The notes beneath the pieces were generated by a model. It ran no database searches, was not told the origin of the DNA, and was given only the letters and a program-made list of their open reading frames with translations. Positions 1-63,534 of a stretch of DNA of 64,000 bases are shown here, one piece after another. How positions within the stretch are numbered: position 1 is the first letter of the stretch; each line of letters opens with the position of its first letter. The stretch is from positions 14,032 through 78,031 of the forward strand of contig CAZLVU010000005.1 of assembly GCA_964563355.1 (NCBI GenBank), given 5' to 3'. This DNA comes from an uncultured Candidatus Poseidoniales archaeon. GTDB lineage: Archaea; Thermoplasmatota; Poseidoniia; Poseidoniales; Thalassarchaeaceae. The translations under genes were made by a program, and so were the position numbers.

Positions 1-570
1 GTTCTAGTTGACGCCGGTTGTGAGATTCATGGTTATGCCTCGGACATTACTCGTACGTGGCCGGTTAATGGGGCCTTCAATGAAGCTCAGAGGGAGATCT
101 ACGATCTAGTTTTGGAGGCTCAGATAGCTGGAATTAGGGCTTGCCAGCCCGGCTCCCCCTGGCTTTCCATGCATCAGGCAACATCCCAGGTCTTGGCACA
201 GGGTTTGATTGATCTGGGTGTACTAGATTGCTCTCTGACCGACGCCCTTGGGAATGATTTTGATGGTCCGTTTCGTAACTACTTCATGCATGGGACTGGT
301 CACTTACTAGGGCTCGATGTGCACGATGTCGGAGGGGGTCGTCAAGGTGACGATGACCCAGGACCTATACTTCAGCCGGGCATGGTTTTCACTGTGGAGC
401 CGGGCTTGTACTTCGCAAGCTGGCGCTCAGATGTTGAAATCCCCAAGAGATTCTCAGGTATTGGTGTGAGAATTGAAGATAATGTGCTGATAACTGCTAA
501 TGGCCCTGAAGTCCTAACCTCAGCATGCCCTAAAGGCGTGGCTGAAATTGAGGATTTGATTAATTCATGA
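1..570 (+). CDS. pepP: Xaa-Pro aminopeptidase (M24B family), C-terminal part; 5' end cut by the window edge
   Basis: Frame 1 is open from base 1 (VLVDAGCEIHGYASDITRTWPVNG...). Metal-ligand motifs are HGTGHLLGLDVHD, VFTVEPGLY and GVRIEDNVLIT. Confidence 0.85.
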   Translation, partial: VLVDAGCEIHGYASDITRTWPVNGAFNEAQREIYDLVLEAQIAGIRACQPGSPWLSMHQATSQVLAQGLIDLGVLDCSLTDALGNDFDGPFRNYFMHGTGHLLGLDVHDVGGGRQGDDDPGPILQPGMVFTVEPGLYFASWRSDVEIPKRFSGIGVRIEDNVLITANGPEVLTSACPKGVAEIEDLINS

Positions 571-4046: not shown

Positions 4047-6308
4047 CTATTTCTTTCTTCTCTTGGATGCCTTGATACTCTTCTTTAGATTGGAAATTAG
4101 AGCGCTGGCATCAGATTTAGATATGGTTTCTATAGATTCAACTCTGACGATTTCCATCGCTTCGTCTATTGAAATTCCCAAATCTTCAGACATAGATCGA
4201 ATAGCATTAGTTTGTTTTTCGGTCGCCGGTGATGAATTATCCAAGGCAATTAGTTGCTCGATAACTCCACTGGCCGTTCCGCCCCTGCCACCAGTGAGGT
4301 CAGAAATATCTGCATGACCCATTTCACTTAGGAAACCAGATAATTCCAAATCTAGCTTGTCTACAAGCTTGATAATCAGACCTATTTGCTTCTCACTTGC
4401 GGAAATAGAACCGGATCCGTTCTCACCTAATTTGTCGATGGCGGCCTTAGCTTCAGCCCCCGTAAGCTCATCCGTACTCTTTCCACCTAGAATCATAGAG
4501 CGTTCACTCTCCTCCGTCCCCCCTAGTAGTCTTTCCAAGTACTCCTTTTGCCTAACAGTGGGTGCCTCTCTTCTTTTATCGAGTGCGGAATTGTGCATCT
4601 TTCGAAACAAATCCTCAAAATCTTGCCAAATAGTAGACGATTCAGCTTCACCGATTTCGATTTTGTCTAGACTCCGTTCCATAATTGCTGTGAAGTCAGT
4701 GGTGAATAATCCAGCATCGAAAAGAGTAGATTCAGAATAGTGGGGTGCGACGTCAAGCCATAGTGTTCTACCATTTTCTGTGGGAATTAGTGAAGACCCT
4801 TCTTTATCCAGGTATCCCTTCTGGGATAATTTAGTGATAGTAGAGACATATGTGGAGGGGCGACCTATTCCAGCTTGTTTCATGTGTTGCACAATTGAGC
4901 TTTCACTAAGCCTTCTTGGGGGCTTGGTAAAATCAGAAACCAATTCTGGAGGCTCATCTAGTTTCCATTCCGATCCTATATCAAATCCACAGGACGGTGG
5001 AGATGTTACTGCCTTGCTGGGGGAAACGCCTTCGAAGGCCTTCTCCCATCCAGCGTGGGTTCTCCAACTGGCAGTACCAACAATTTCTAGCTCTAAACCA
5101 TCACAGTTCAGCGATAGTCTCCTTCTCTCACTGATCGAGTTGGACATCTGGCTGGCTGCAAACCGAGCCCAAATCAAACTGTACAACTTAACCTCATCCG
5201 CCTCCAAATCTACAGAGTCAATTTTCGGATTTGTCGGTCTGATGGCCTCGTGTGCGTCCTGGATCTTGCCCGATCCCTTTTTCTTTTGCTCTCCGACGCC
5301 ATCACCCAAGAATTCGTCCCCAAATCTCTCAGTGATAATTTCGCGTATCTCAGATCTAGAGTTTGCACTTGTTCTGGTGGAATCGGTCCGTATGTAGGTA
5401 ATATGTCCGGTCTGATATAGAGATGTAGCGACCCGACTAGTTCTTCCAATAGGCCATCCAAGAGATGAATTGGCGGTTTGAAGCAATGTATCTGTGGTAA
5501 AGGGGGGATATGGCTTCCTTTTCACGGTCCCTTCTTTCACTGAACTTAGCGTAATCGTACGGGAATTGGTCAATACCTGATGCGCATTCTGTGCAAGCAC
5601 GCCGTCCGACGTTCTGTCGTATTGTGGCTTGCCATCGTCACCCCTCCAAGCATCGGGATCGTCGCTTTGATGGAAATTGACCCTGAGATCCACCCCGTTT
5701 GATTGCAGATTCACAGAATGGAACTCTATCGGGATATGAGCCTCCCGCTCAAGCTCTCTATTGACAACGAACCCCAATGTTGGAGTTTGTACCCGACCCA
5801 TTGATCTCAATTTCCACGATCTGCAAAATTTTGAACACCTGAAGCCAACTAAACGATCCATGAATCTCCTAACCATGGCTGCTTCAACTAAATCCATATC
5901 TAGTTCTCTGGGACTGTTTATTGCATCAGTTACTGCAGATTTGGTGATTTCATTGAAGGAAACTCTACTCACTTCATTAAATTCTGCGAAAATGATACTC
6001 AGCCTCCATGCAATGAACTCCCCCTCTCTATCTGGGTCAGTTGCAATGTAGACGTGATCGACTCCCGAAGAAACTGCCCTGCGCAGAATCTTGTCGATAA
6101 TTGACTCGGCCCTCTCAGTCCATGCCCACGGTGGATTTGGTAGTTTACCGGGCTTAGAAGCCCACAGTGCCTTTGAACTGTTCTTAGTACCATCGTTTGT
6201 CGGCAAATCTTGCACATGCCCGTTACATGCTTCAACAATCCAACCCCTCCCCAGGTATTTCTTGACGGTGCGAGCCTTGGCACGTGACTCCAGAATTACA
6301 AGTTTCAA
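4047..6308 (-). CDS. topA: DNA topoisomerase I (type IA) with a non-zinc C-terminal repeat region
   Basis: Toprim N-terminus (KLVILESRAKARTVKKYLG, DPDREGEFIAWRL) and the catalytic-Tyr region GHITYIRTDSTR. TTG start preceded by GGGGTGA. Confidence 0.9.
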   Translation of the reverse strand: MKLVILESRAKARTVKKYLGRGWIVEACNGHVQDLPTNDGTKNSSKALWASKPGKLPNPPWAWTERAESIIDKILRRAVSSGVDHVYIATDPDREGEFIAWRLSIIFAEFNEVSRVSFNEITKSAVTDAINSPRELDMDLVEAAMVRRFMDRLVGFRCSKFCRSWKLRSMGRVQTPTLGFVVNRELEREAHIPIEFHSVNLQSNGVDLRVNFHQSDDPDAWRGDDGKPQYDRTSDGVLAQNAHQVLTNSRTITLSSVKEGTVKRKPYPPFTTDTLLQTANSSLGWPIGRTSRVATSLYQTGHITYIRTDSTRTSANSRSEIREIITERFGDEFLGDGVGEQKKKGSGKIQDAHEAIRPTNPKIDSVDLEADEVKLYSLIWARFAASQMSNSISERRRLSLNCDGLELEIVGTASWRTHAGWEKAFEGVSPSKAVTSPPSCGFDIGSEWKLDEPPELVSDFTKPPRRLSESSIVQHMKQAGIGRPSTYVSTITKLSQKGYLDKEGSSLIPTENGRTLWLDVAPHYSESTLFDAGLFTTDFTAIMERSLDKIEIGEAESSTIWQDFEDLFRKMHNSALDKRREAPTVRQKEYLERLLGGTEESERSMILGGKSTDELTGAEAKAAIDKLGENGSGSISASEKQIGLIIKLVDKLDLELSGFLSEMGHADISDLTGGRGGTASGVIEQLIALDNSSPATEKQTNAIRSMSEDLGISIDEAMEIVRVESIETISKSDASALISNLKKSIKASKRRKK

Positions 6309-6350
6309 TTTTTCACCCCGACTCTATTTTTCACTTGCCGAAACATGCGA

Positions 6351-6358
6351 TGTATAAA
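6351..6358 (-). promoter_or_regulatory. TATA-like box upstream of topA
   Basis: The minus strand reads TTTATACA 43-50 nt upstream of the topA TTG start. A GGGGTGA Shine-Dalgarno-like element lies between them. Confidence 0.3.
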
Positions 6359-6382
6359 CGTGAGTAGTCCAGTCACCTTCCA

Positions 6383-6410
6383 ACGCGCGCGTGCGCGCGT
6401 GGGCGTGCGT
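6383..6410. repeat. Alternating purine-pyrimidine (CG/TG) tract containing the self-complementary ACGCGCGCGT
   Basis: ACGCGCGCGTGCGCGCGTGGGCGTGCGT lies in the 108-nt spacer between the stop of the 6417-6947 ORF and the topA start. Confidence 0.6.
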
Positions 6411-6416
6411 AGCCAA

Positions 6417-6947
6417 CTACAAATTGATCGAATTGCGATGCTCAGCTTCGTCCCAGACAATTCGGGCAGCGGGACCAAGGCAATCTTCGCATCCTGGAAA
6501 GCCCGCCTCATAGTACTGGAATAGCAGACCGAGGAACTCACGAGTAAATATCCACAAGTCCTCTTTTATCCAAATCATAGACAGTGATTCCGGTTCGAGG
6601 GGCCCAATCATTGCTAACTTAGTGCCATTTGCGCTGAATATGATCTGATGCCCATTTCCATCAATAATCTGGATATTTACAATGAGGGTTGGTATTGCAT
6701 CCTGAGCATTTAGTAATTTGTTTGCAAACCACTCACCAAATGGGATTTCGTGTTGGCTAGTAGGCGTGGAAGCCGGAATCGTGACCTCTAGCTTTGCCTT
6801 CTTCAATACCAACTTCGCCACTTCCGAAATTGCCAAACTGTTTGATGAATGGGCCATCGTATGCAGTATATCCGCAACGATTGAAGGATAAGTGCCTTTA
6901 CCATTACTGATGGGTTTAGCATGGAAGGCATTTTCGCATATTCCCAT
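6417..6947 (-). CDS. Hypothetical protein
   Basis: 176-aa ORF with no recognised motif. An internal Met at 6857 (MAHSSNSL...) would remove the overlap with pyrD, so the start is uncertain. Confidence 0.45.
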   Translation of the reverse strand: MGICENAFHAKPISNGKGTYPSIVADILHTMAHSSNSLAISEVAKLVLKKAKLEVTIPASTPTSQHEIPFGEWFANKLLNAQDAIPTLIVNIQIIDGNGHQIIFSANGTKLAMIGPLEPESLSMIWIKEDLWIFTREFLGLLFQYYEAGFPGCEDCLGPAARIVWDEAEHRNSINL

Positions 6948-20486: not shown

Positions 20487-20873
20487 TCAGCCAAATGACT
20501 GGCCACACCCACACGTCCTGTCAGCATTGGGATTAATTATCTGAAATCCCCCTCCCATCAACGTATCTTTGAAATCGACTGTGATCCCAGTCAATAGAAG
20601 ACTGTCTTTCTTATGTACTAGCACGGAAATACCATCGATTTCAAGTCTTTGGAAATCATCGTTTTCGGGATCCTCGATGATTTTCATGTCGTATAAGTAT
20701 CCGGAACAACCACCTGATTGTGCGCTGATGACTAGGACATGAGATCCCTCGTCACCACTCATGGCATCATTGATTGCTTTCTTTGCGGTTTCAGTGAAAT
20801 CGATGTGCGCATCGACGACCTCAACTTCTGCCACGACTGGTAGGGAAAATCCCTCACCACCCAGTATACCCAT
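20487..20873 (-). CDS. iscA: Iron-sulfur cluster insertion protein, IscA/HesB (A-type carrier)
   Basis: GGCSGYLYDM and the C-terminal NPNADRTCGCGQSFG three-Cys signature. Confidence 0.85.
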   Translation of the reverse strand: MGILGGEGFSLPVVAEVEVVDAHIDFTETAKKAINDAMSGDEGSHVLVISAQSGGCSGYLYDMKIIEDPENDDFQRLEIDGISVLVHKKDSLLLTGITVDFKDTLMGGGFQIINPNADRTCGCGQSFG

Positions 20874-20956
20874 GTCGGTCTGTTGTAAGGGATGTATTTC
20901 AACAGTTGCTGTGAGTCGCCATCACTGCTATCAATCAAACACTCTCCCTTCAAACC

Positions 20957-21766
20957 GTGGAAGGAAGCCATGAACGTGATTCTGCTAGAATAAATGGTTC
21001 TGGAATTGAACGTGTTCCAGACTCTATTGTCATCGAGAGAGCACTGGAGATTTCTGTAAAAACTGATGACTCTGTTAGTTATTCGTTAGGAGTGACCATG
21101 CGAACCCCGGGATCCGACACAGAGCTGGTACTGGGATTTCTCCTATCTGAGGGGATAATTCAGAATATTCACGATGTCAAGGGATTATCTGTTGGGGAGG
21201 ACATAGGAGTTGTTTCTCTTGCACAGTCATCTACGTTCGATCCTGATGTTCATTCAAGAAGGTCTACCATCAGCTCGTCTTGTGGTGTTTGTGGCAGGAT
21301 CTCAGTGGATGGTATGTTGAACAACCCCGACTCAGTAATTTGTGATGATGTGAAAATAAACTTAGAAATCATAAATTCCTGTATCATATCGATGAAGCAG
21401 CATCAGACATTGTTCAAATTCACCGGGGGATCTCATGCGACTGCCAGTTTTACACCAGAAGGAGATTTGGAAAGGATCTACGAGGATATTGGCAGGCATA
21501 ACTCGATGGACAAATTGGTTGGTTCATATCTGAGCGATTGTAATTTGCCAATCACAGACAGGATAGTCGTGGTTTCCGGCAGGGCATCATTTGACTTGGT
21601 ACAAAAGGCGTTAGTTGCCGGATTTCCCATAATGGTATCAATCGGTGCCCCCAGTACTATGGCTATTGATATGGCCAATGAGCATGGATTGACGTTAGCG
21701 TGCTTCGCCAAATCTAGTTCGATTTCAGTTTTCAGCGGCACTAGCCGTATCAAATATAGGCAATAG
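20957..21766 (+). CDS. fdhD: Formate dehydrogenase accessory sulfurtransferase FdhD
   Basis: SSCGVCG active-site loop and DIGRHNSMDKLVG motif. Lies directly upstream of a molybdopterin oxidoreductase. Confidence 0.8.
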   Translation: MEGSHERDSARINGSGIERVPDSIVIERALEISVKTDDSVSYSLGVTMRTPGSDTELVLGFLLSEGIIQNIHDVKGLSVGEDIGVVSLAQSSTFDPDVHSRRSTISSSCGVCGRISVDGMLNNPDSVICDDVKINLEIINSCIISMKQHQTLFKFTGGSHATASFTPEGDLERIYEDIGRHNSMDKLVGSYLSDCNLPITDRIVVVSGRASFDLVQKALVAGFPIMVSIGAPSTMAIDMANEHGLTLACFAKSSSISVFSGTSRIKYRQ

Positions 21767-51945: not shown

Positions 51946-52980
51946 TCACTCCGAAAGTCTTTGGATTAGGTCGGCCTTCTTCCCGGAGACGGGTTTTTCT
52001 GACTCTTTGAGGAGTTGCTTGAGTTCGGCTACGGAGAGGGAACTGTATATCCTCTCGACCAAAACTGCCTTTGTTCCGCTAGATTCTATATTCAATGACT
52101 TCGAAATTTCGACAAGTTCAGCCTTGAGCCTACTACCCAGTCCGATGAGATTGGATGAATCGGGTTCTGGGGCAACAACCTCTCTTTCATTATCTCCCTC
52201 TTCCATTAATTCCTCAGGTTGATCATCAGATTCGATCACTTCCTCGGGAGTGGCGTCTTCGGATAACTCTGAATCAGCAATTTCCACGTCCGATTCCTCC
52301 TCGGATGATTTCTGGTCTTCTATTGCTGATTTTTCGTCTGCCTTAATCTGCTCAAGTGTGGGGCCATCGTCGATCACTACTCCGGACTGAATTAGTTGGC
52401 TGCGTCTGAAGAAGACCATCCTAACGGGTTGGATTTTGGAGATGGCCTTGCCTACTCTTTCTTCCAGGGAACCGTCAAGCAGACTACTCTGAACCTCAAT
52501 CCAAGTGCTCTTAGAGCAGAATTTGATAACCTCGTTCCTAGCTATGGTTCTCGTTTCCTGTTTTTGGCTACCCTTTACCCTTGATCTGGTTACGATGAAT
52601 GGTTTTAGTCTGATGAAATATCCATCATCAGTAATGACATCGATTGAATCGTCGATCTTGCCCCTCTCACGGCGAATCTGACGCCTGACAAAATCCTTCA
52701 TTGTGTCATGACCAATGAATTCAGTTAAGGCATCGTTTCCAACTACTTCGTGGACCCTGAATTGGATCTTAACATGCATCTTTGAGAAATCGCCATCTAG
52801 TTCATTTTGCATTACCTCGTAATGCCGCCCAACCAGCATCTGTTCTTCCTCGGCGATGGTCTCCCCGATCACCTTGAATGACCAGGGGTTGCGAGGTGCC
52901 CTAATCGAGAACCAACGTTTGGCCTTCCATTTGTCCTTCTGTCTTCGAGCCGCTGCTCTAGCCGATGCACCCTTGGCCAT
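51946..52980 (-). CDS. rps3ae: 30S ribosomal protein S3Ae (eS1) with an acidic linker and two C-terminal SAP/HeH-like motifs
   Basis: MAKGASARAAARRQKDKWKAKRWFSIRAPRNPW....GRHYEV is the S3Ae core. The C-terminus carries LKAELVEISKSLNIESSGTKAVLVERI and LSVAELKQLLKESEKPVSGKKADLIQRL. The start is set at Met19 of the track ORF. Confidence 0.8.
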   Translation of the reverse strand: MAKGASARAAARRQKDKWKAKRWFSIRAPRNPWSFKVIGETIAEEEQMLVGRHYEVMQNELDGDFSKMHVKIQFRVHEVVGNDALTEFIGHDTMKDFVRRQIRRERGKIDDSIDVITDDGYFIRLKPFIVTRSRVKGSQKQETRTIARNEVIKFCSKSTWIEVQSSLLDGSLEERVGKAISKIQPVRMVFFRRSQLIQSGVVIDDGPTLEQIKADEKSAIEDQKSSEEESDVEIADSELSEDATPEEVIESDDQPEELMEEGDNEREVVAPEPDSSNLIGLGSRLKAELVEISKSLNIESSGTKAVLVERIYSSLSVAELKQLLKESEKPVSGKKADLIQRLSE

Positions 52981-53112
52981 TGAATAGACTCCTATTTCGG
53001 GGGCTGCCCCGTTTGCGGGCCGTCCGACCTGCAACCAGTATTTGAACGAAATGCCATCAGCATACTATCCAAATTACATCTAAATGAGGATCATGTTTCC
53101 TCTGGACGCACC

Positions 53113-54913: not shown

Positions 54914-55900
54914 CTAGCTCTTCCGTCCCCTTGCTGTCCCAAGTTTGCGTGAGCTCTTCCTTTTTCTCCGGCGGGCAGGTTCTTCCGAAGATTGTTCTGC
55001 TACTGTGCCTCCGAATGTAATAGACCCGCTTTCAATTAGCTGCTCAGAGAGGGAGTCTGCAAGATCATCGTCCTGATCGGGGGTCTTTAGCGCCTGCCTT
55101 ACTGAATCATTGTGTTCCCTGACCATCCTCTCTCTCTCTTCATACTGAGACTTCAGCTCTTTTCTAATTTCAGTGACCTTGGTCTGCATTTCTACAGTAT
55201 TTGCATGTACCTCATCGGCCTTTTCTCTCTCCTTAACAAAGATTGAATGAAGCCTATCGCCCTCGCCTCTGAGGAAATCTCTCTCTTCCAGCATTGGTTT
55301 GATCTCCTCCCAAATCTGGTCAGCGAGTTTGTTCTTCTCTATCATCAACTGGTGCTCATTGTCTGCTTCGGCTCTGAGACGCTGTATGGATTCATCCATT
55401 TCACCTAGGTCGATGGTAATGAGTTGGTGTTCCTCCACCGAAGGAATCAGTTCGTCTCTGCGAGCCATCAACGATCTCAGCTTCTTGATCAAACTATTCT
55501 CCTTGTCAAGCGAGAGGGACCCGTCCGTCATGATCTGGTTCTCGATCCTGTCTATTTCACTAACTGTTTCAGACAATTGAATGACAACAGATTTGCTTGG
55601 CCCGTCACCCCTCCTGCCCTTCTTCCTAGACGTAAGCTCTCTAACGTGTTTCTGAATCTCATCTCTCCTAGTTTGATGGATCTTAGCTAAAGCCCGAGTG
55701 TCCTTCTGCTCTTCCATACGTTCCTTGATTGCTTTTCTAAGCTCGGCGCCCTGGTTTTGGACTGAGTCCCGAGAATCGGCTGCTCTCCTTGCAGACTCGT
55801 TATGTGCATTCCTTTGATCCCTCATTCTCCTGAGCTTGGATTCCATTGCGTGGAGTCTGTTCCTGAGGTCTTCACCCACGGGTGATTCTTCCTCGCCCAT
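54914..55900 (-). CDS. Coiled-coil protein, paralogue A (COG1340-like) with a basic C-terminal tail
   Basis: Heptad-rich K/E/R sequence, central IDRIENQIMTDGSLSLDKENSLIKKLRSL, C-terminal ESGSITFGG and the tail RRRKRKSSRKLGTARGRKS. Confidence 0.6.
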   Translation of the reverse strand: MGEEESPVGEDLRNRLHAMESKLRRMRDQRNAHNESARRAADSRDSVQNQGAELRKAIKERMEEQKDTRALAKIHQTRRDEIQKHVRELTSRKKGRRGDGPSKSVVIQLSETVSEIDRIENQIMTDGSLSLDKENSLIKKLRSLMARRDELIPSVEEHQLITIDLGEMDESIQRLRAEADNEHQLMIEKNKLADQIWEEIKPMLEERDFLRGEGDRLHSIFVKEREKADEVHANTVEMQTKVTEIRKELKSQYEERERMVREHNDSVRQALKTPDQDDDLADSLSEQLIESGSITFGGTVAEQSSEEPARRRKRKSSRKLGTARGRKS

Positions 55901-55934
55901 GGAGTTCGGAAGTGCATTTCCTTATTGAAACGAA

Positions 55935-57515
55935 CTAAAGTCCCAAAAGACTTGCTACGAAGGGTAACAAGGGCGAAGCGACCGCTAGGAAAGCGCCGAA
56001 CATGAATACTGCTCCCGTAGTCATCCTTAGCCGAGTGAATAGGTCCGACCTGACTTGTGCAGTAAGGACCTTCCCGGATATCAGGTTCCCTGAAGAGTCC
56101 TCCAGCCTGACAGTTACAGTTGTCTCGCCCATGGATGATGGTATCAGGCTCTGCCAAATTATTCTGGAAGATAACACAGATTCTGCCAATCTCTCGAAAC
56201 CCCTCTTGCCATCGAGGGAGGTGCTTCCAAGAGGCTCGGCTCGAAGTCTGTAAACACACTCGTTTGGTCTGAAGTCTGGAGTCTGGACTCTGAGAATCAG
56301 GTCCTGACTTTCATCTGTCTGATTTAGGATGAAAGCGAAGAGGTTAGCCTCGCCTAGTGTCAGGTTTTCCATGTCAACATCGAACCAAACGCCGGAAAAA
56401 TCGGTCTTCGTGAGATGCATTCTGAGCCTATCATTCAATCTGAAAAACGGCGCACATCTGGTTCTAGCGTGGAGGAGTAAACGATCCAGAGTCTCCTCTC
56501 CCATCTCAGGGTGATTGATGATTTGTTCTACGGTCTTTGAGTCTAGTACCGATTCTAGAGAGGTGTGGAAATCCTCCTCATCGATGATCCCTGAACGGAG
56601 CATGTGAAGCATTTGCAAAAGATGCTCCTGCAGCTCGGAGAGACTGGTGCCCTTGCGTAAATCATTGGAAAACGAAGAGACGTATTTCGAAACACGCACA
56701 GTTAGAAGAGGGTCAACATGTGCCCTAATTACGTCTGAAAAGGGCTTATCCAGTAGAGCGGGGTGAATAGGGGGGGAAAACGCCTCCAAAAGGCCCCAGG
56801 GCTCAATTGTGTTGAATCGAGGTCGATTGGAGACCATGTAAACGCTGTGCCCCGATAATAGAGCGCCAGTAGAGAGTGCAATCAGCACTGGAACACCTTG
56901 GGTCTCAGTTGAGAAGTTTAGCGCTACACCGAGCAACAGCGTTGCGATTACCATCAAGGTAGTTGTGAGGTTAAGTTGACTCGAGGCCCCATCAATTACT
57001 GCTTTCATCTCAGAGTATCCATGAGCGCTTCTGAATGTGACACCGGCGCTTGTAATTTGGTCAGTTTCAATTTGGAATATCCTTTGTGTCACCCACAATA
57101 AATAGTGGAGGACAAACAATAGGACCAGATCTGCAACCATGATAACCAATGACAAGAAGTAGATTGCCTTGGACAAGCTTAGATCGAAGAACAGCCCCTT
57201 AACGCTGCCAGACCACCAACTTGGATCCCCTCCCCTGTATGACTGTGCAAGACCAAACAGTACCACAACAATGATTGGCAAAAATAGAATTAGCCTGACC
57301 CCCCTACTAATCAGGAGGTCGTCCACCCCTGTCAACGCCGACTCTCGTGCTTTCAAGGACTTCTTGTATTCTCTTTCTTCTGTATTGACCTTGGAAACTT
57401 TTTCTGGCCCCCTCAAATCTGGAGCTGGTGGGGTCTGGGGATCCAAATCACTGATTAATGAGTCAAATTCGTCACCGACGTCTCTCAGGAGCCTGGAATC
57501 TTCTCTCCCGTCCAT
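55935..57515 (-). CDS. Hypothetical polytopic membrane protein with a large soluble domain and a C-terminal TM
   Basis: Cytosolic N-terminus, about 4 TM helices (residues 85-240), a soluble region of about 270 aa and a terminal TM (GAVFMFGAFLAVASPLLPFVASLLGL). Lies 4 nt downstream of the DtxR gene. Confidence 0.5.
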   Translation of the reverse strand: MDGREDSRLLRDVGDEFDSLISDLDPQTPPAPDLRGPEKVSKVNTEEREYKKSLKARESALTGVDDLLISRGVRLILFLPIIVVVLFGLAQSYRGGDPSWWSGSVKGLFFDLSLSKAIYFLSLVIMVADLVLLFVLHYLLWVTQRIFQIETDQITSAGVTFRSAHGYSEMKAVIDGASSQLNLTTTLMVIATLLLGVALNFSTETQGVPVLIALSTGALLSGHSVYMVSNRPRFNTIEPWGLLEAFSPPIHPALLDKPFSDVIRAHVDPLLTVRVSKYVSSFSNDLRKGTSLSELQEHLLQMLHMLRSGIIDEEDFHTSLESVLDSKTVEQIINHPEMGEETLDRLLLHARTRCAPFFRLNDRLRMHLTKTDFSGVWFDVDMENLTLGEANLFAFILNQTDESQDLILRVQTPDFRPNECVYRLRAEPLGSTSLDGKRGFERLAESVLSSRIIWQSLIPSSMGETTVTVRLEDSSGNLISGKVLTAQVRSDLFTRLRMTTGAVFMFGAFLAVASPLLPFVASLLGL

Positions 57516-57519
57516 CCAA

Positions 57520-58182
57520 TCAACCCTCTGTTAACTCGATGACTCTAGCAAGGACACTAAAAGACATCCCACTGGACAGCTCCAGACCCCTGCCCTCACA
57601 AGTAAATGCGCCATTTGAGTTGGTGATTCGCGAGCCGATTTCTATTCCTGATTCGTATAATGTAACCCTCTCTACTTCAGACGCGAGGATTAGTTCAACT
57701 TCTGCAATGGAACCTTCAGGAAGATTGGCTATTGGCAACAGAATTCCTACCTCCGCAACGTCGAAGGACCTTTCAATTGCAGGAATCCTAGTCCCATCCA
57801 TAGTCCTCTCAGGAAATCCCAATAGCCTGTCTAAATCAGCTTCTAGCTCGTCGCTAATCGTGTGCTCCATCTTGCATGCTGCCTCATAAACGTCCCCGGA
57901 AAACCCAATTATTTCGGAAAGTAGAATCTGAAGAAGCCCCTCTCGCCGTTTTATCCTAGCAGCAAGTTGGAACCCCTCGGGTGTCAACCTACATCCTTTG
58001 TAGGGGACATGCGTCACCATCCCCTTTTCAGACAGCCGTCTGATCATCTCAGTTGTAGAAGCTGGAGTGACCTGCATCAAGTCTGCCAGTTGGGTTGTTT
58101 TGACAATAGCTTCGGGGGTTTCACTGTGAACCTCGAAGATTCGCTTCAGGTACATCTCCTCGAATTCGCTGAACCCCGACAT
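57520..58182 (-). CDS. DtxR/MntR-family metal-dependent transcriptional regulator with a FeoA-like C-terminal domain
   Basis: EMYLKRIFEV, wHTH TTQLADLMQVTPASTTEMIRRLSEKGMV, and the metal/dimerisation region ACKMEHTISDEL. Confidence 0.85.
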   Translation of the reverse strand: MSGFSEFEEMYLKRIFEVHSETPEAIVKTTQLADLMQVTPASTTEMIRRLSEKGMVTHVPYKGCRLTPEGFQLAARIKRREGLLQILLSEIIGFSGDVYEAACKMEHTISDELEADLDRLLGFPERTMDGTRIPAIERSFDVAEVGILLPIANLPEGSIAEVELILASEVERVTLYESGIEIGSRITNSNGAFTCEGRGLELSSGMSFSVLARVIELTEG

Positions 58183-58184
58183 AA

Positions 58185-59768
58185 CTAATCCTCTGAGGTC
58201 TCAGCTAAGAACTCCAACTTGCATACGGGGCATCGTGCCCTTACCGGCCTTTTCTCAATGGACACTTTCAGGGTCTGGTTACAATCTGGGCACTGGAGCA
58301 GATCGTCAGATGAGCTGGAAACTGGCTGTGAGGTTTCCTCTGATGTCGGCGCCGGGGGCAATTCCCCGACAGTAAATTGCATCGTACATGCTGGGCATTT
58401 GACTCCACCGAAGTGGTTTGAAGGCAATTTCAGTCGCTGGTCGCAAAAGGGGCAGGGAATCTCTATCTTTTCTTGGCTCGACTGATTTTTCCGAGCCTCC
58501 CTAGTAGCTCTGAAACCGGATTCGGAAGTTGATGGGGTTCTTGTTGAGACGGCTCGCCAAGCCAATGTCCCCGCAAGTATTGCGGCGATACCTGCAAGCA
58601 CCCCATATGTAGCTGAAATTATATCGAATGGCAGGTTAGTTTCATCCTCTTTGGGTTTCGAATCAACGGTGATAAAATCTGATTTCGTATACCCCCCACC
58701 TGCCCACATTACTTCGATCTCAACACGGTCACCATCAGGCCAAGTTGGAATCTCCATCACACTGGAATATTTGCCGCCGGGTTGCACTGATGGCGCCAAG
58801 GATTCAGCAAGGATTGATCGATCGGAAGCACGGATGAGTCTCACCTTACCGGAAGGAGCATGGTTCACATCCTCATTGGCTAATTCAAACTCAACCAAAG
58901 TACTCTCACCGGAGCTAGGGCCATTAGGGGAAAAGGATGCTTCGATGCTGAATAAAGAAAGTTCCAAACCCGGCATCTCTACATGAAATCCCGTAGCGTT
59001 TGAAGACATATGGCGTGGTTGCCAACTCAGTGGAATAATTTCCACGATGATGTATTCTGTCGTTGGATTACCCAAATCAAATTGTACCGTTCTCCTACCA
59101 GGGTTTAGCTCAAATGGGAATTCCTGCAAAGGCGCGGCATCACCTTGAAGTTGAGTGGAAGCACGAATTGCAACATCTCTCTGTCTCCCCGGAGAGAGGA
59201 ACACAGAGATCTCAAGGGAGAGGGTTTCGTCTAGTTCCCAGCTGACTGAGTCAACACTCAGATTGATAACCTGTGATGCTGCTATTTCAACCGAAAACTC
59301 ACCATTCAGAGTGGGATCGATTAGGGAATTCGGGCTCGTGAGCCACCAATCGTAAATCAGAGTGCCATCGTGTTCGGGAACGAAGGTAGCACTAACCTCT
59401 CTGCTTGATCCCGGAGAAATCTCCACCGGTATTCCAGAAGAGGAAATCGAATTAATTCGGTCCTGAAGGTTCAATGTTACCAATCCTGAGGCCGAGCCAC
59501 GATTACTAACGAGAACCGTGGCAACTAGAGGGTCCCCCGCGTGAGAAGGCTCACCAAGTAAAGCCACTCCGGTACCGCCAGCAAATGAGAAGTTTGCAGT
59601 ACCGTTAGATTCGGATGAGAAGCTAACACTGGTTGGCTCGGAATCGAGCATACTGCAGCTAGAAATGCTGAAGAATGGCAATGGCATTAGGACTAACACA
59701 ATCAAGAAGCAAAACGCCCTCTTCGTATTTCCTAGCATTGTGACGTCCTCCTCAATGCATCGTATCAA
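58185..59768 (-). CDS. Single-pass surface protein with Ig/CARDB-like repeats and a cytosolic tail carrying two zinc ribbons
   Basis: Signal/TM FCFLIVLVLMPLPFFSISSCS, beta-rich repeats (LVATVLVSNRGSASGLVTLNLQD; VEFELANEDVNHAPSGKVRLIR) and TM VLAGIAAILAGTLAWRAV. The tail has CPFC..17..CPAC and CPDC..17..CPVC. Confidence 0.55.
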   Translation of the reverse strand: MIRCIEEDVTMLGNTKRAFCFLIVLVLMPLPFFSISSCSMLDSEPTSVSFSSESNGTANFSFAGGTGVALLGEPSHAGDPLVATVLVSNRGSASGLVTLNLQDRINSISSSGIPVEISPGSSREVSATFVPEHDGTLIYDWWLTSPNSLIDPTLNGEFSVEIAASQVINLSVDSVSWELDETLSLEISVFLSPGRQRDVAIRASTQLQGDAAPLQEFPFELNPGRRTVQFDLGNPTTEYIIVEIIPLSWQPRHMSSNATGFHVEMPGLELSLFSIEASFSPNGPSSGESTLVEFELANEDVNHAPSGKVRLIRASDRSILAESLAPSVQPGGKYSSVMEIPTWPDGDRVEIEVMWAGGGYTKSDFITVDSKPKEDETNLPFDIISATYGVLAGIAAILAGTLAWRAVSTRTPSTSESGFRATREARKNQSSQEKIEIPCPFCDQRLKLPSNHFGGVKCPACTMQFTVGELPPAPTSEETSQPVSSSSDDLLQCPDCNQTLKVSIEKRPVRARCPVCKLEFLAETSED

Positions 59769-59831
59769 TCAAACCCAAAAAGTTCTACCACACAGGGCTT
59801 TAATGCATGAATTGACCCGTGCCGAAACGTA

Positions 59832-60668
59832 ATGGACAGTGAAACACTGCTATCCCTCGGACCGGAAGAGCTAGCGAACGCCCTCTTATTGCGTAGGAAG
59901 GTGCTGAAGGAAAGCCTTCCGGGTGTGATTAGAAATCTCGAGGCTGAGGAAGAAGCCCTTGCGCCAAGACTAGAAAGATCTGAGAAATCATATCAACAGG
60001 CAAATGAGAAAGTTGCACGTCTTAAGGATGTTCGAGATGGGAGTCAAAGTGAAGCCGGATCAATTCTAAATTCTGTAAAATCTTCTAGGGAAAGACTACT
60101 GGAAACCGGGGGTTTAATCAATCTAGATCCACGATGGAAGAAAGAGAAGCTTTTTGAAAAACTAGATGAAATAGAGCAAAAAATCCAGACTTCCGCTTTA
60201 GATCACAAAGCTGAGAGGTTAATGCTAGACAAGAGAAAGAAGCTAATTGAGGAAAATGAAAGTTGGCTGATGGATAGAAAAGAGTCAAACCCTGAAATGT
60301 CTGATTATATTGAGAATCGGCGGAAGATGTCAAAATTGTACAAGGGCGCCGACAAAGCACACCGAAAGATGCTTGAGGCGGTTGAGAAAGCTCAGCCAAT
60401 TTACGAAAAAAGGATGGCTCTGATGCTAGATTTGAGGGAAGTCAGGAGTCAACTAGACCGGGCAAGGGAGTTATTGTCCCAGTCAGACAAGGCAATAGAA
60501 CACTGGCAAAGGAGGTTGGAAGAAGGCTTTGATGACCTAGGTCGTGGATTCCCAGACCTACTGGCTGACAGCAAGATTGTTTCTGACGGTGGAGCTTCTA
60601 CATTTGCAAGGAAGGTCACGCCCAAGAAAAGGCAGAAAATTAGCAACGAAGGAAGTGAAGGAGAATGA
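59832..60668 (+). CDS. Coiled-coil protein, paralogue B (COG1340-like)
   Basis: Central LDEIEQKIQTSALDHKAERLMLDKRKKLIEE and a basic C-terminus KVTPKKRQKIS. ATGA overlap with the next gene. Confidence 0.55.
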   Translation: MDSETLLSLGPEELANALLLRRKVLKESLPGVIRNLEAEEEALAPRLERSEKSYQQANEKVARLKDVRDGSQSEAGSILNSVKSSRERLLETGGLINLDPRWKKEKLFEKLDEIEQKIQTSALDHKAERLMLDKRKKLIEENESWLMDRKESNPEMSDYIENRRKMSKLYKGADKAHRKMLEAVEKAQPIYEKRMALMLDLREVRSQLDRARELLSQSDKAIEHWQRRLEEGFDDLGRGFPDLLADSKIVSDGGASTFARKVTPKKRQKISNEGSEGE

Positions 60669-61630
60669 GCAAGTCCCAGAATAGCCTAGATTGGGGTGAT
60701 CTCGAAGAATTTGATAGGGATGAAATTGATCAATTAATTAGCGGGCAAAAAAGGACCCTCTCAACATTGGAAAACGAGAGGAGAGGATTACGGGCAGAGA
60801 GGAAGGACCAGGTAGAGATAGTGAAAGCGCTCAGATCAGTTCTGGGAAAGGTGCAAACGGCAGACTCTGGGCGTAAAAGGCTCCTAAGTAGCTTTCACAA
60901 ATCAAGGAAGCTTGCTAATAAGAAGAAGAAACTTAGAGACTCGATAAATGAATTAATTCCACCCCCAACAAAAATCTTATTGGAATGGTTAAATGAAACC
61001 CATTCAAGACTGACCACAATAGACAATGACCTTACCTCCGTTCCAATGTTGAACAGAGAACTCGATGCGTTCAGCCGATTCTTTGAGATTCAGTCGGCAA
61101 TCAAAAGAAAGAGTGTCGCGGAATTAGCACATAGCGAATATGCATCTCATATCAAGGACCTGAAAGCGATAACGAAACAGCTTGATCAGAATAAGGATGA
61201 TGTTGCCAGCAGCATCTCTGAATTAGAGAAGGGCGGCAACCAGTTGGGGAAAGAGGATGTTAACAGGAAAGAGGTGCGGAAAATCAGCAATCGAATCTCT
61301 TACATTGACAAAAGGATGGATGAAATAAATGTTGAAAAGCGAATTACCAAAAAGGAATTGGGGCGGTTTGAAGCCTATCATCGTATTTCTTTTAGTAGGA
61401 AAGGCCGAGTAAAGATTTCAGACATCAAGGATATTGCCGTCAGTGGCGGGATGCTGACTACAGCAGAAATGGGGGCTCTGCTCGATTCGGGAAGTCTGTC
61501 AAACCTAGAACGAGAAACTGGAGGTAAAACTGAGGAGGAATTCAAAACTCCAAAGAAGAAGATTAGAAGGCTTGGAGTCTCAAGAAGAGGTAGCAGAAAA
61601 GGCAATCTGGCAAGACGAAAGGAAGAATGA
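60665..61630 (+). CDS. Coiled-coil protein, paralogue C (COG1340-like) with an MBF1-like basic tail
   Basis: Heptad-rich sequence, C-terminal SGGMLTTAEMGALL and the tail PKKKIRRLGVSRRGSRKGNLARRKEE. Confidence 0.55.
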   Translation: MSKSQNSLDWGDLEEFDRDEIDQLISGQKRTLSTLENERRGLRAERKDQVEIVKALRSVLGKVQTADSGRKRLLSSFHKSRKLANKKKKLRDSINELIPPPTKILLEWLNETHSRLTTIDNDLTSVPMLNRELDAFSRFFEIQSAIKRKSVAELAHSEYASHIKDLKAITKQLDQNKDDVASSISELEKGGNQLGKEDVNRKEVRKISNRISYIDKRMDEINVEKRITKKELGRFEAYHRISFSRKGRVKISDIKDIAVSGGMLTTAEMGALLDSGSLSNLERETGGKTEEEFKTPKKKIRRLGVSRRGSRKGNLARRKEE

Positions 61631-61696
61631 TCGCATTTGGGTATCTTTGGTATTGCTTAAATGGGTTTCCAAATTCGGCTACTATGAGGACTTGCG

Positions 61697-62554
61697 TTGG
61701 GGCTAAATCACACGAGTCTCGAAGCAATCTTCGAGCCTGTTACTGAAAGGGTTTCTGCGAGGTTATCTGATTTCAAGACCAAGCGTGATGAGTTTAATTC
61801 AGATGTAAGAGTCCACCTTGACAAAAGAAACGAAATTAACAGGCAAGTCAAGGAGCTAATTACAGAGGTGCAAAATCAAAAGGAAATTCGTAACCATGCT
61901 AATTCCAAAGTTCGTGATTTGAAAAAGCTTAGATTGCAAAGATCGAATGAATTGAAGGAGCTTCGTGCAATACTAAGGGACAGCAAACCATCCAAGGCAG
62001 AGAGGGCCAAGAACGGAAAGTCTTCCCAAAAAATAAGGGCAATGATGAACGGTCTGGAATGGAAGCACCAAACCGGTCAGATAAATCCAAGCAAAGAGAA
62101 GGAGTTCATCTCCAAGATGAAGAAACTCCAGAAGGAGTATAACGAGGTAAAGGCAATTGAGGATGCAAATAGTTCCAAAATTCTCAACAAAGTCAGAGCA
62201 GCGGAGTCTGTGCAAGCTGAGGCCCACAAGTCCGTCGAGGAAGCCGTAGTTTCTGCCCAAGAAGCTCATGACCTTATGATTGAGTTATCCGATGAGGTCG
62301 ATAGGCTCAGGAGTCTTGCTAATTCGGAGCATATCGATCTTACTAAGATGAAGAAGAAGGCAGATGATTTACACAGCAGATACATTGTGTCACTTCGTTG
62401 CATTCACTCAATGCAAGATATGCTGAAAATATTAGACTCGAAACAGAGGTTTGACCACGGAGATGAAAAAGTGGAGGTTTCTGACCTCATGTCGAGGCTA
62501 ATGTCTGGAGACACCTTGTCGACTGAAGAGTTGATGTCACTACAGAGGAATTAA
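61697..62554 (+). CDS. Coiled-coil protein, paralogue D (COG1340-like)
   Basis: RDEFNSDVRVHLDKRNEINRQVKEL, central MNGLEWKHQTGQINPSKEKEFISKMKKLQKE, and C-terminal SGDTLSTEELMSLQ. Confidence 0.6.
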   Translation: MGLNHTSLEAIFEPVTERVSARLSDFKTKRDEFNSDVRVHLDKRNEINRQVKELITEVQNQKEIRNHANSKVRDLKKLRLQRSNELKELRAILRDSKPSKAERAKNGKSSQKIRAMMNGLEWKHQTGQINPSKEKEFISKMKKLQKEYNEVKAIEDANSSKILNKVRAAESVQAEAHKSVEEAVVSAQEAHDLMIELSDEVDRLRSLANSEHIDLTKMKKKADDLHSRYIVSLRCIHSMQDMLKILDSKQRFDHGDEKVEVSDLMSRLMSGDTLSTEELMSLQRN

Positions 62555-63534
62555 TGCAATTCGAAAGTTCGGCCAATCCTGCCATGCAATAGAATGTCTT
62601 CTTGTTCATGAATAATCCAGCCGGGCAAGAATAGCGGCCTTTGTCCCAATCTTGCGGAGTCACTTCTGAAAGACCATCTCTGTAGTAACATGCTTCTGAC
62701 CGGTCCTTTCTCTCCAGAGCTAGTCGTACCGTCCTGTCTCCTAACCTCAAGCAATTTGCCTACCATCCCAGGCAGGTTTTCCTCTGCAATCCATGAATCA
62801 TCAGGAGGGGGGAGGACCTGTAAATCTGGTACATTTTCCAGCCTTTCCGACTCATCAAAAATTTCAATCTTAGAGGACCATGGGTCTTCGTTCAACTTCC
62901 AGGTATTCCTCTCTAGCTCTCCTTCGGGCCCCTCCAAATCTCCGGTTACGACCCATGTCTTCGCACCTAGCAAAACCGGTGTGTATGTTGCGCCTTCCAT
63001 CCCCCTGACAGACAACCAGTTTGAAACGTCAATAATGGGCCTGAGAAAGTCAGTTTTTTCGTGGGTTTCACCTTCTTTGTCGATTGGGGGGGGATTTTCA
63101 TTCTGGTTAGATGGGTGATGAGCAATTAATTCGCCAGACATTACAGCCCTACCGATCCAGAGAGAAACCTCTTCCGGCCCCCATAGGGCTATTTCGGGGT
63201 CAGAATACTGCGAGTTGTCCAATAGTAATTCCCTTTCAGACAGAATCCAGTGCCGACCCTCGGGTGCGTCCACTGACCATCTTTCTAACTCCTGCTCGGT
63301 CAAAGGCAATAAATCAGCAGGAACATGCCAGACGTAGACTTCACGTGAGTCGTCCGTGCCTATGTCAGGAACCTTGGCCGCTATTCCCAAGCAATGGAAG
63401 CCATGTACTGTTCTCGCAAGTTGAACAGGCCTAAGTCTCACCGTTCTGTTAACCAAAAGGTCTCTGACCGCAGACTCCATGAAGCTAAGGGAGCATCTTG
63501 GGACTTTCAAACGAACCCAAGATCCGCATGTCAA
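62551..63534 (-). CDS. Hypothetical protein immediately downstream of rpl30e
   Basis: 327-aa ORF, 16 nt after the rpl30e stop on the same strand. No recognisable domain. The start is possibly at MESAVRD (63480). Confidence 0.5.
   Translation of the reverse strand: MTCGSWVRLKVPRCSLSFMESAVRDLLVNRTVRLRPVQLARTVHGFHCLGIAAKVPDIGTDDSREVYVWHVPADLLPLTEQELERWSVDAPEGRHWILSERELLLDNSQYSDPEIALWGPEEVSLWIGRAVMSGELIAHHPSNQNENPPPIDKEGETHEKTDFLRPIIDVSNWLSVRGMEGATYTPVLLGAKTWVVTGDLEGPEGELERNTWKLNEDPWSSKIEIFDESERLENVPDLQVLPPPDDSWIAEENLPGMVGKLLEVRRQDGTTSSGEKGPVRSMLLQRWSFRSDSARLGQRPLFLPGWIIHEQEDILLHGRIGRTFELH

Follow-up and report, generated by a model that had tools for sequence, protein, structure and literature searches.

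Four diverged DUF7121/COG1340 coiled-coil paralogues in a conserved gene cluster of marine Poseidoniales archaea and their possible link to RNA 3'-end metabolism

The window analysed here is a 64,000-nucleotide (nt) stretch of contig CAZLVU010000005.1 (positions 14,032 to 78,031, forward strand) from an uncultured Candidatus Poseidoniales archaeon of the Thalassarchaeaceae (assembly GCA_964563355.1), and our subject is the cluster of seven genes at 54914-62554, four of which encode the coiled-coil proteins A, B, C and D. Paralogue A (54914-55900, minus strand, 328 amino acids (aa)) is a divergent hairpin protein of the coiled-coil family DUF7121. It shares its strand with the genes for TM, a membrane protein of 526 aa with no Pfam family (55935-57515), a DtxR-family metalloregulator of 220 aa (57520-58182) and IgZn, an immunoglobulin (Ig)/zinc-ribbon protein of 527 aa as listed (58185-59768), the gaps between these minus-strand genes being 2, 4 and 34 nt. 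On the plus strand, across a divergent spacer of 63 nt with the listed IgZn start, lie paralogue B (59832-60668, 278 aa), a divergent DUF7121 protein and the first gene of the B-C pair, and paralogue C (60665-61630, 321 aa), the most divergent DUF7121-like hairpin, which ends in a basic disordered tail (DNA 61553-61627). The stop codon of B and the start codon of C are joined in an ATGA overlap (60665-60668, plus strand), an arrangement for translational coupling. Paralogue D (61697-62554, plus strand, 285 aa), which starts with TTG, is the canonical DUF7121/COG1340 orthologue. All open reading frame (ORF) coordinates, gaps, the ATGA overlap and the peptide motifs quoted in a first-pass annotation of this DNA match the sequence, the motifs verbatim. 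Rfam, tRNA and repeat scans of the region gave no match.

COG1340 was flagged in 2005 as a strongly conserved archaeal group of coiled-coil proteins of unknown function (PMC1322226). By profile comparison, A, B, C and D are true paralogues of this family, DUF7121 (PF23435)/COG1340, and both the paralogy and the COG1340 assignment that the first-pass annotation had made are upheld by Pfam and by profile-profile comparison with controls. Pairwise BLASTP among the four proteins is weak, the best match being A-D with 24% identity over 244 aa (E 0.002), and was dropped as a test of paralogy for that reason; in its place we used profiles of orthologue sets taken from 80 species-representative loci. 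With hhalign, the A-D profile pair scored 97.3% (P 2e-11, 218 collinear columns), B-D 96.8%, A-B 94.6% and A-C 85.6% (256 columns), while C-D reached 71% through the C-terminal motif only and B-C 6%. A broader reference profile was built from 51 canonical DUF7121 proteins from outside the Poseidoniales, obtained by exhaustive search. Against it D scored 100% (E 3e-48, 276 columns), A 99.5% (E 1.6e-22, 279 columns), B 98.6% (E 1e-15, 168 columns) and C 95.4% (E 1.6e-8), the last over 249 collinear columns from end to end. Reversed-sequence controls against the same profile gave scores of 14-19 with P of at least 0.085. Under a harsher null, in which alignment columns were shuffled as 7-residue (heptad) blocks, the observed score of C was 65.5 against 21.6 +/- 3.9 (z = 11) and that of B 112.4 against 26.6 +/- 6.8 (z = 13). 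Nor are the four unrelated low-complexity sequences, since each of the orthologue sets has a mean column identity of 0.57-0.68 and many invariant positions fall outside the heptad pattern.

The curated Pfam model covers the four proteins unevenly. D matches it with 56.1 bits (cutoff 29) over profile positions 44-303 of 307. The window copy of A reaches 28.9 bits against the same cutoff of 29, and E ≤ 0.01 is reached by 25 of its 30 orthologues compared with the model, the best of them with E 1.2e-11; the A orthologue of one locus, L084, carries the PF23435 label (L and P numbers are our handles for loci and for representative protein clusters). By this measure A is a DUF7121 homologue at the edge of the curated model. 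The window copy of B has no Pfam match, with 10 of 32 B orthologues matching DUF7121 at E ≤ 0.01, and none of 29 C orthologues matches the model; 192 homologues of C are likewise without a Pfam label. The Pfam model thus misses B in the window copy and in most orthologues, and C in all of them. The profiles of A and B independently pick up canonical DUF7121 proteins of other archaea, with up to 72 and 47 bits, respectively. For D, 828 homologues were found, with 671 representative clusters at E ≤ 1e-3, and since all 63 of the 63 full-length representatives have D as their best match, D is taken as the canonical orthologue. On the same profile evidence A, B and C are lineage-specific derivatives, C being the most remote. 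No similarity was found between the four paralogue genes at the DNA level, and hence the duplications are old. Family members are labelled in the databases (JGI, Tara) as 'uncharacterized coiled-coil DUF342 family protein' or 'COG1340', and the source names of D homologues include Candidatus Thalassarchaeaceae and Poseidoniales, which assigns the window to an MGIIb-like archaeon of Marine Group II; the closest GTDB species representatives share only ~61% identity in D.

AlphaFold2 (AF2) models were considered for two of the four proteins. In the model of D (predicted local distance difference test, pLDDT, 84.4) helices span residues 5-95, 110-125, 131-254, 261-269 and 276-284, and in that of C (pLDDT 78.6) residues 18-95, 102-117, 129-244 (kinked), 251-260 and 266-275. 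As modelled, D and C share one topology, a single long antiparallel helical hairpin with a first arm of ~80-90 residues, a short conserved turn helix, a second arm of ~115-125 residues and two short C-terminal helices, to which the C model adds a disordered basic tail. The central conserved segment of A, IDRIENQIMTDGSLSLDKENSLIKKLRSL (55469-55555, minus strand), aligns with the central segment of DUF7121 and, by homology with the D and C models, would form the region of the hairpin tip. When compared with PDB structures by Foldseek, the D and C models matched generic coiled coils only, none at E ≤ 0.001, and a PDB sequence search with the D profile gave no match.

At the C terminus the four proteins differ. 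The family motif G-x-(K)LSTE(D/E)L-x-LQ is full in D (SGDTLSTEELMSLQ), partial in C (GGMLTTAEMGALL) and degenerate in A (GSITFGG) and B (GGASTFA), where only the glycines remain. The C-terminal mini-domain of D, SGDTLSTEELMSLQRN (62504-62551, plus strand), consists of the two short helices and fits the family motif G-x-KLSTEDL-x-LQK-x-G. A ends in a basic tail with the motif SRKLGTARGRK (54917-54973, minus strand), which is common to A and C and has the counterpart IRRLGVSRRGSRKG in C; the median net charge of the tail is +8 over the last 45 aa. The motif recurs in 42 of 65 A orthologues and 34 of 70 C orthologues, is found in none of 70 B and none of 79 D orthologues, and among the 91 ORFs of at least 100 aa in the window occurs in A and C only. 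Judged by these alignments, A and C have acquired a common basic, RG-containing tail. A, B and C share the three-part layout of DUF7121/COG1340 proteins, and C also their modelled topology; they differ from the canonical proteins in the basic tail of A and C, which the latter lack, and in forming with D four clustered copies in fixed order with B and C coupled.

Synteny was mapped by tblastn across the 80 species-representative Poseidoniales loci. The order A-TM-DtxR-IgZn|B-C-D is complete and collinear in 60 of the 80, with a span of 7.5-8.0 kb; the other 20 are truncated at contig ends or fell under the coverage filter, and no violation of order or strand was found among the mapped loci. The cluster is therefore kept in relatives, and its absence from close ones, which would have made the arrangement a chance juxtaposition, is not what is seen. 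In essentially all loci of Marine Group IIb (MGIIb) the genes run S3Ae, x152, ferredoxin, PdxS, A(-), TM(-), DtxR(-), IgZn(-), B(+), C(+), D(+), y327(-) and L30e(-). Loci of the MGIIa type (L073, L075-L080) and further lineages reached via more distant D relatives (L081-L085) keep the A-TM-DtxR-IgZn block and the B-C pair. The A-TM-DtxR-IgZn|B-C segment is uninterrupted, and it is the junctions between C and D and after D that gain or lose genes. In other lineages the C-D junction holds a GNAT acetyltransferase, a weakly Roadblock/LC7-like protein (~105-122 aa) and often a KaiC-like ATPase (inserts at L075 9090-9910, L077 7054-8720, L080 3202-4824, L084 8308-9883 and L082 5499-9894), PurP follows D, and L082 also has LGT and a radical-SAM gene between C and D. 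None of these genes is present in the 64-kb window, so that the lineage of the window has lost or relocated them; the nucleotidyltransferase (NTase) of relatives described below is absent from the window too.

How much the gene order says about function is another matter. The flanking S3Ae, ferredoxin, PdxS, L30e and RNA polymerase (RpoA/RpoB) genes are as collinear as the cluster, and because these housekeeping flanks are equally syntenic, gene order alone is weak evidence for a functional module. The earlier description of the locus as a dedicated module hence stands as to the conservation of the arrangement and loses much of its force as to what that conservation implies. More weight is carried by the uninterrupted A-TM-DtxR-IgZn|B-C block and by the B-C overlap, which measures 4 nt (-4) in 58 of 67 loci and is shared by all the distant lineages, so that the proposed translational coupling of B and C holds well beyond the window. 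A fixed cluster with one coupled pair suggests that DUF7121 proteins work as heteromers, and B and C in particular, made from a bicistronic message, would with reasonable probability assemble into a heteromeric coiled-coil bundle.

The first concrete indication of what such hairpins might do comes from relatives. Five Poseidoniaceae-type species encode their C orthologue in one ORF of 678-717 aa, fused to a terminal nucleotidyltransferase (NTase-C; plus strand, L073 6867-9020, L075 7017-9086, L076 6960-9038, L078 1850-3886 and L080 1166-3205). The N-terminal 370 residues of these proteins match PF22600 (E down to 4e-31) and PF03828, the 310 residues at the C terminus align over their full length with the C profile (positions 6-313), and the genes keep the 4-nt overlap with the stop codon of B. 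The closest relatives of the NTase in the PDB are human TUT7 (E 1e-48) and TUT4, followed by Arabidopsis URT1, CutA, Cid1 and GLD-2, and all five fusion proteins retain the catalytic GS...DLDLC...D residues. A Pol-beta-type palm (PF22600/PF01909) and the PAP-associated domain (PF03828) are absent from the C protein of the window and from the whole 64 kb. The earlier remark that no enzymatic domain is visible is thus true of the cluster in the window and does not extend to other lineages, where C is fused to a nucleotidyltransferase of the terminal uridylyltransferase (TUTase) type and GNAT, Roadblock-like and KaiC-like genes lie between C and D.

A second kind of fusion involves a ribonuclease. 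Proteins of four independent representative clusters (P0329, P0364, P0373 and P0376) begin with an NYN ribonuclease (PF11977) and continue with a DUF7121 hairpin, both arms of which match the D profile (full E 1e-28 to 1e-31). A SAP domain scores over its cutoff in two of these proteins and a KH-like GXXG motif is seen below threshold in three. The genes lie at L099 1144-2781, L100 1252-2868 and L103 273-1832. A split version is present in L106 and L107, where NYN-SAP and DUF7121-SAP are encoded by separate overlapping genes (in L106 at 4250-5503 and 5481-6716). The contigs with NYN-DUF7121 genes are archaeal, with aIF2-gamma, S6e and Orc1/Cdc6 among the neighbours. Of the catalytic domains seen here to be attached to the DUF7121 coiled coil more than once, all are RNA enzymes.

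We tentatively favour, at somewhat less than even chances, a reading in which the hairpins are non-catalytic, hetero-oligomeric adaptors or scaffolds in RNA 3'-end metabolism, because the recurrent catalytic fusion partners are RNA enzymes and the tails of A and C are of a nucleic-acid type. The hairpins would act in RNA tailing, decay or processing, with assembly and the recruitment of enzymes falling to the coiled coil, and contacts with nucleic acid to the basic tails of A and C. In the Poseidoniaceae the recruited enzyme, a TUT4/7/Cid1-type nucleotidyltransferase, would have become covalently fused to C, and in other marine archaea an NYN ribonuclease with SAP and possibly KH domains is joined to a DUF7121 hairpin by fusion or translational coupling. 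The neighbouring operon of IgZn, the DtxR-family protein and TM may serve to anchor the assembly at the membrane or to regulate it there, a part of the proposal that we consider doubtful. Stated at its broadest, DUF7121/COG1340 would be the assembly scaffold of the archaeal RNA 3'-end tailing and decay machinery, which in Poseidoniales would form a four-subunit set (A, B-C and D) docked at the membrane via TM and IgZn and in Poseidoniaceae would recruit a eukaryote-type terminal uridylyl- or adenylyltransferase by fusion; in this full form we regard the model as improbable.

Several observations weigh against a role of the hairpins as RNA adaptors. A domain search found no RNA enzyme, KH or SAP domain in A-D or elsewhere in the 7.6 kb, and the NTase, GNAT, Roadblock-like and KaiC-like genes are missing from the entire 64-kb window. 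The domain fusions are circumstantial and heterogeneous: in Methanocellales/Halobacteriota, for instance, DUF7121 is fused to a HAD/SerB phosphatase (P0295, P0330, P0416 and P0417), an architecture at odds with an RNA role. Binding by SAP domains and basic RG tails may be to DNA or to RNA, the KH match in the NYN-DUF7121 proteins falls below threshold, and searches by PDB sequence, fold and literature found no solved structure or paper that informs on DUF7121 function. The HAD/SerB fusions probably also explain the labels 'phosphoserine phosphatase' and K01079 on DUF7121 proteins that have no HAD domain, such as P0373.

A conserved TATA-like element precedes each of A, B and D. The element TTCAATAAGG (55920-55929, minus strand) lies in the 34-nt gap between TM and A, ~20 nt upstream of the A start, is conserved in 59 loci and is a possible separate promoter for A. 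The element CTTTAATG (59798-59805, plus strand), 34 nt upstream of the B start, is conserved as CTWTAATG and may be the promoter of B; being nearly symmetric, it might serve the minus-strand operon too. In the C-D spacer GGTATnnCTTAAATG (61649-61663, plus strand), ~35-45 nt upstream of the D start, is conserved in 68 loci, and D probably has its own promoter. Since each is preceded by such an element, A, B-C and D are read as separate transcription units with similar promoters, a view we hold with somewhat better than even confidence. The first-pass annotation had placed B, C and D on one transcript, which, with TATA-like elements upstream of both B and D, is probably not the case, and had made A the last gene of the minus-strand operon, which may not hold given the element in the TM-A gap.

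The alternative that fares best is that the cluster is a historical one. Tandem duplications of D would have given A, B and C, now with separate roles, in a region of low rearrangement near the L30e/RNA polymerase operon, and the membrane/DtxR operon would be an unrelated neighbour. The collinearity of the entire segment from S3Ae to L30e/RpoA/RpoB across the order speaks for this, as do the apparently separate promoters of A, B-C and D, the coming and going of unrelated genes (GNAT, KaiC-like, PurP, LGT and radical SAM) between C and D, and the lack of DNA-level similarity between the paralogues. However, the retention of the B-C overlap (58 of 67 loci and every distant lineage) points to production of at least these two proteins in stoichiometric amounts, the tail motif specific to A and C suggests a common partner, and the three promoter-like elements resemble each other. 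We consider the historical explanation possible and rather doubtful.

The neighbours had been described as a surface protein with Ig repeats and a tandem zinc ribbon, a DtxR regulator and a polytopic membrane protein, and the first two identifications are borne out. IgZn, the surface protein, is a type-I membrane protein with a signal or anchor at residues 18-36, an Ig/CARDB-like ectodomain of ~345 aa and a transmembrane helix at 381-399; its cytosolic tail carries two CxxC...CxxC zinc ribbons (DNA 58386-58454 and 58221-58292). An in-frame ATG at 59738, preceded by a Shine-Dalgarno-like GAGGAGG at 59747-59753, is probably a likelier start for IgZn than the listed TTG at 59768, and the divergent spacer would then measure 93 nt and not 63. 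The third neighbour does have several transmembrane segments, yet is not polytopic throughout: TM has N-terminal helices at 72-90, 118-136 and 181-199 with a probable fourth near 205-225, a soluble domain of ~270 aa (~226-500) and a C-terminal anchor at 502-520. Its N terminus is predicted to be cytosolic, and from the charge distribution we infer that the soluble domain is cytosolic as well. TM orthologues are present in all lineages. In L099 a 487-aa paralogue of TM (4153-5616, plus strand; 102 bits to the TM profile, E 4e-31) is encoded 1.4 kb downstream of the NYN-DUF7121 gene, with an RFC-like gene between them; this second co-localisation of the TM family with DUF7121 is seen in one of the four NYN-DUF7121 contexts.

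The DtxR-family protein (57520-58182) has a winged helix-turn-helix domain (PF01325, 54.0 bits) and a metal-binding/dimerisation domain (PF02742, 62.4 bits), both over cutoff, and a C-terminal SH3-like domain. In comparison with DtxR (1g3y), the primary metal site is conserved (Met10, Cys102, Glu105 and His106) and the ancillary site is lost (His79Arg, Glu83Leu and His98Tyr). The protein thus resembles DtxR, IdeR and MntR in its winged helix-turn-helix, dimerisation and SH3-like domains and in a complete primary metal site; it differs in the loss of the ancillary site, in a score of 93 against the NCBIfam equivalog cutoff of 350 and in that its gene does not lie beside a recognisable metal transporter. 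The spacer between IgZn and B, in the promoter region of the DtxR gene itself, contains a conserved, non-palindromic 14-mer, TATCAATCAAACCC (59763-59776, plus strand), a candidate operator or 5'-leader element. Its 12-mer core has 50 occurrences in 1.43 Mb of loci (~0.7 expected), all of them in the IgZn|B spacer; the exact 14-mer is missing from some MGIIb clades and from MGIIa loci. Two near-copies with 13 of 14 positions occur in the window at 20929-20942 (plus strand) and 201-214 (minus strand). The former occupies the intergenic region of two divergent genes, one IscA/HesB-like (20487-20873) and one FdhD-like (20957-21766), the second of which is followed by a gene for a molybdopterin oxidoreductase of 774 aa; this near-copy is unchanged only among near-identical strains, is degraded in a relative of 55% identity (L088) and is probably due to chance. 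A DtxR regulon marked by TATCAATCAAACCC is not supported, as the copy on the FdhD side is not conserved and the motif is found nowhere else in the 1.43 Mb.

On these features a membrane-associated scaffold could be proposed, in which A-D form polymers or bundles beneath the membrane, anchored via the zinc-ribbon tail of IgZn and the cytosolic domain of TM, with metal-responsive expression through the DtxR-family regulator. A adjoins TM-DtxR-IgZn in every lineage examined and the block is never interrupted, B-C diverges from it across a short spacer that holds the spacer-specific 14-mer, in L099 the gene of a TM-family paralogue is 1.4 kb away from a further DUF7121-type gene, the ~270-aa domain of TM and the zinc ribbons of IgZn are predicted to be cytosolic, and D and C are modelled as long rigid hairpins. 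Set against this, adjacency has low weight when the housekeeping genes on either side show the same synteny, a promoter-like element of its own precedes A, and a TM-family neighbour accompanies only one of the four NYN-DUF7121 contexts. Furthermore, archaea without these membrane proteins nearly all have the canonical family, no membrane or cytoskeletal domain is found among the fusion partners of DUF7121, and A-D are without an amphipathic or transmembrane segment. The structural membrane module suggested by the first-pass annotation is accordingly disfavoured: the fusion partners are RNA enzymes and nucleic-acid-binding domains, which favours an RNA-related adaptor, and we regard a membrane scaffold as unlikely.

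The shape of the hairpins also recalls the arms of SMC proteins, and a role in DNA or chromosome organisation can be formulated in which headless, SMC-arm-like hairpins bind DNA via AT-hook-like tails (A and C) or SAP domains (relatives) and structure or segregate the nucleoid, possibly at the membrane. The top Foldseek matches of both models are SMC coiled-coil fragments (5xg2, E ~7e-3), further weak matches are to the coiled coils of SMC, Rad50, JetC and LmuB, SAP motifs occur in related fusion proteins, and the RGR-containing basic tails of A and C resemble AT-hooks. The structural and sequence resemblances are, however, shared by antiparallel coiled coils in general and all fall short of E ≤ 0.001, there is no ATPase head or hinge, and the catalytic fusion partners are RNA enzymes (TUTase and NYN ribonuclease) and not DNA enzymes; we regard this role as very unlikely. 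Models of SMC/Rad50 type gave only 11-16-bit coiled-coil matches to A-D, which are 278-328 aa long and, going by the D and C models, helical throughout, against cutoffs of more than 500 bits. SMC and Rad50 arms are thus alike in the antiparallel two-helix hairpin and as the top Foldseek matches, and differ in their ATPase head, hinge or zinc hook, in E values no better than 7e-3 and in identities of 11-16%. A defence island was rejected, as PADLOC returned only coiled-coil matches of 16-22 bits (JetC and LmuB) and the locus is part of the syntenic core; the remaining cluster proteins had no PADLOC match, and neither had the NTase-C and KaiC-like proteins that relatives encode.

For hairpin proteins acting as adaptors of RNA enzymes, two known systems offer comparisons. 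Terminal nucleotidyltransferases (TENTs) act with non-catalytic targeting partners. The C orthologues of Poseidoniaceae carry a catalytic module of the kind found in Cid1, TUT4, TUT7, URT1 and GLD-2, with active-site residues intact, and a coiled-coil partner that targets a TENT is our working model for C. The difference is that C in the window is without an NTase domain and the window without an NTase gene. To our knowledge, TENTs are regarded as eukaryotic and a fusion with DUF7121 has not been described. The second comparison is with bacterial RNase Y, which comprises an N-terminal membrane anchor, a coiled-coil region, a KH domain and an HD nuclease. The NYN-DUF7121-SAP proteins likewise join a coiled coil, a ribonuclease and a KH-like domain, and a link to the membrane, as in a membrane-tethered degradosome, could be provided by the neighbouring membrane proteins. 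This is an analogy of function only: there is no homology, the nuclease is NYN and not HD, the KH match is below threshold, the proteins of the window are without a nuclease and the tethering is speculative.

DUF7121/COG1340 is among the few near-universal archaeal proteins of no known function. The family itself was already known as a DUF; new are three previously unrecognised subfamilies (A, B and C), the fixed clustering with B-C coupling, the tail of A and C, and the fusions to RNA enzymes. The fusion to, or coupling with, RNA enzymes and SAP domains, repeated and independent, is the first concrete functional lead for the family, and it is noteworthy in itself that an abundant family of marine archaea has a TENT-type nucleotidyltransferase. 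The scaffold model in its broadest form, if true, would imply TENT-type RNA tailing in archaea. The RNA hypothesis can be put to the test although Marine Group II (MGII) is uncultured, because some archaea with a canonical DUF7121 orthologue are genetically tractable. No later literature was found on COG1340, DUF7121 or PF23435, nor on a TUTase or Cid1 in archaea or on NYN with a coiled coil, and a paper on the MGII metatranscriptome makes no mention of the cluster genes.

Two genes flanking the cluster in the window may be recorded. Convergent with D, and overlapping its stop codon by 4 nt, lies a gene for a conserved 327-aa protein (62551-63534, minus strand), which has no Pfam or NCBIfam match, adjoins L30e in every lineage examined and gives profile matches of 215-254 bits in L081-L084. 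On the other side, at 51946-53034 (minus strand), a homologue of ribosomal protein S3Ae carries a long acidic C-terminal extension, the end of which, by eye only, appears to contain two helix-extension-helix motifs of the SAP type.

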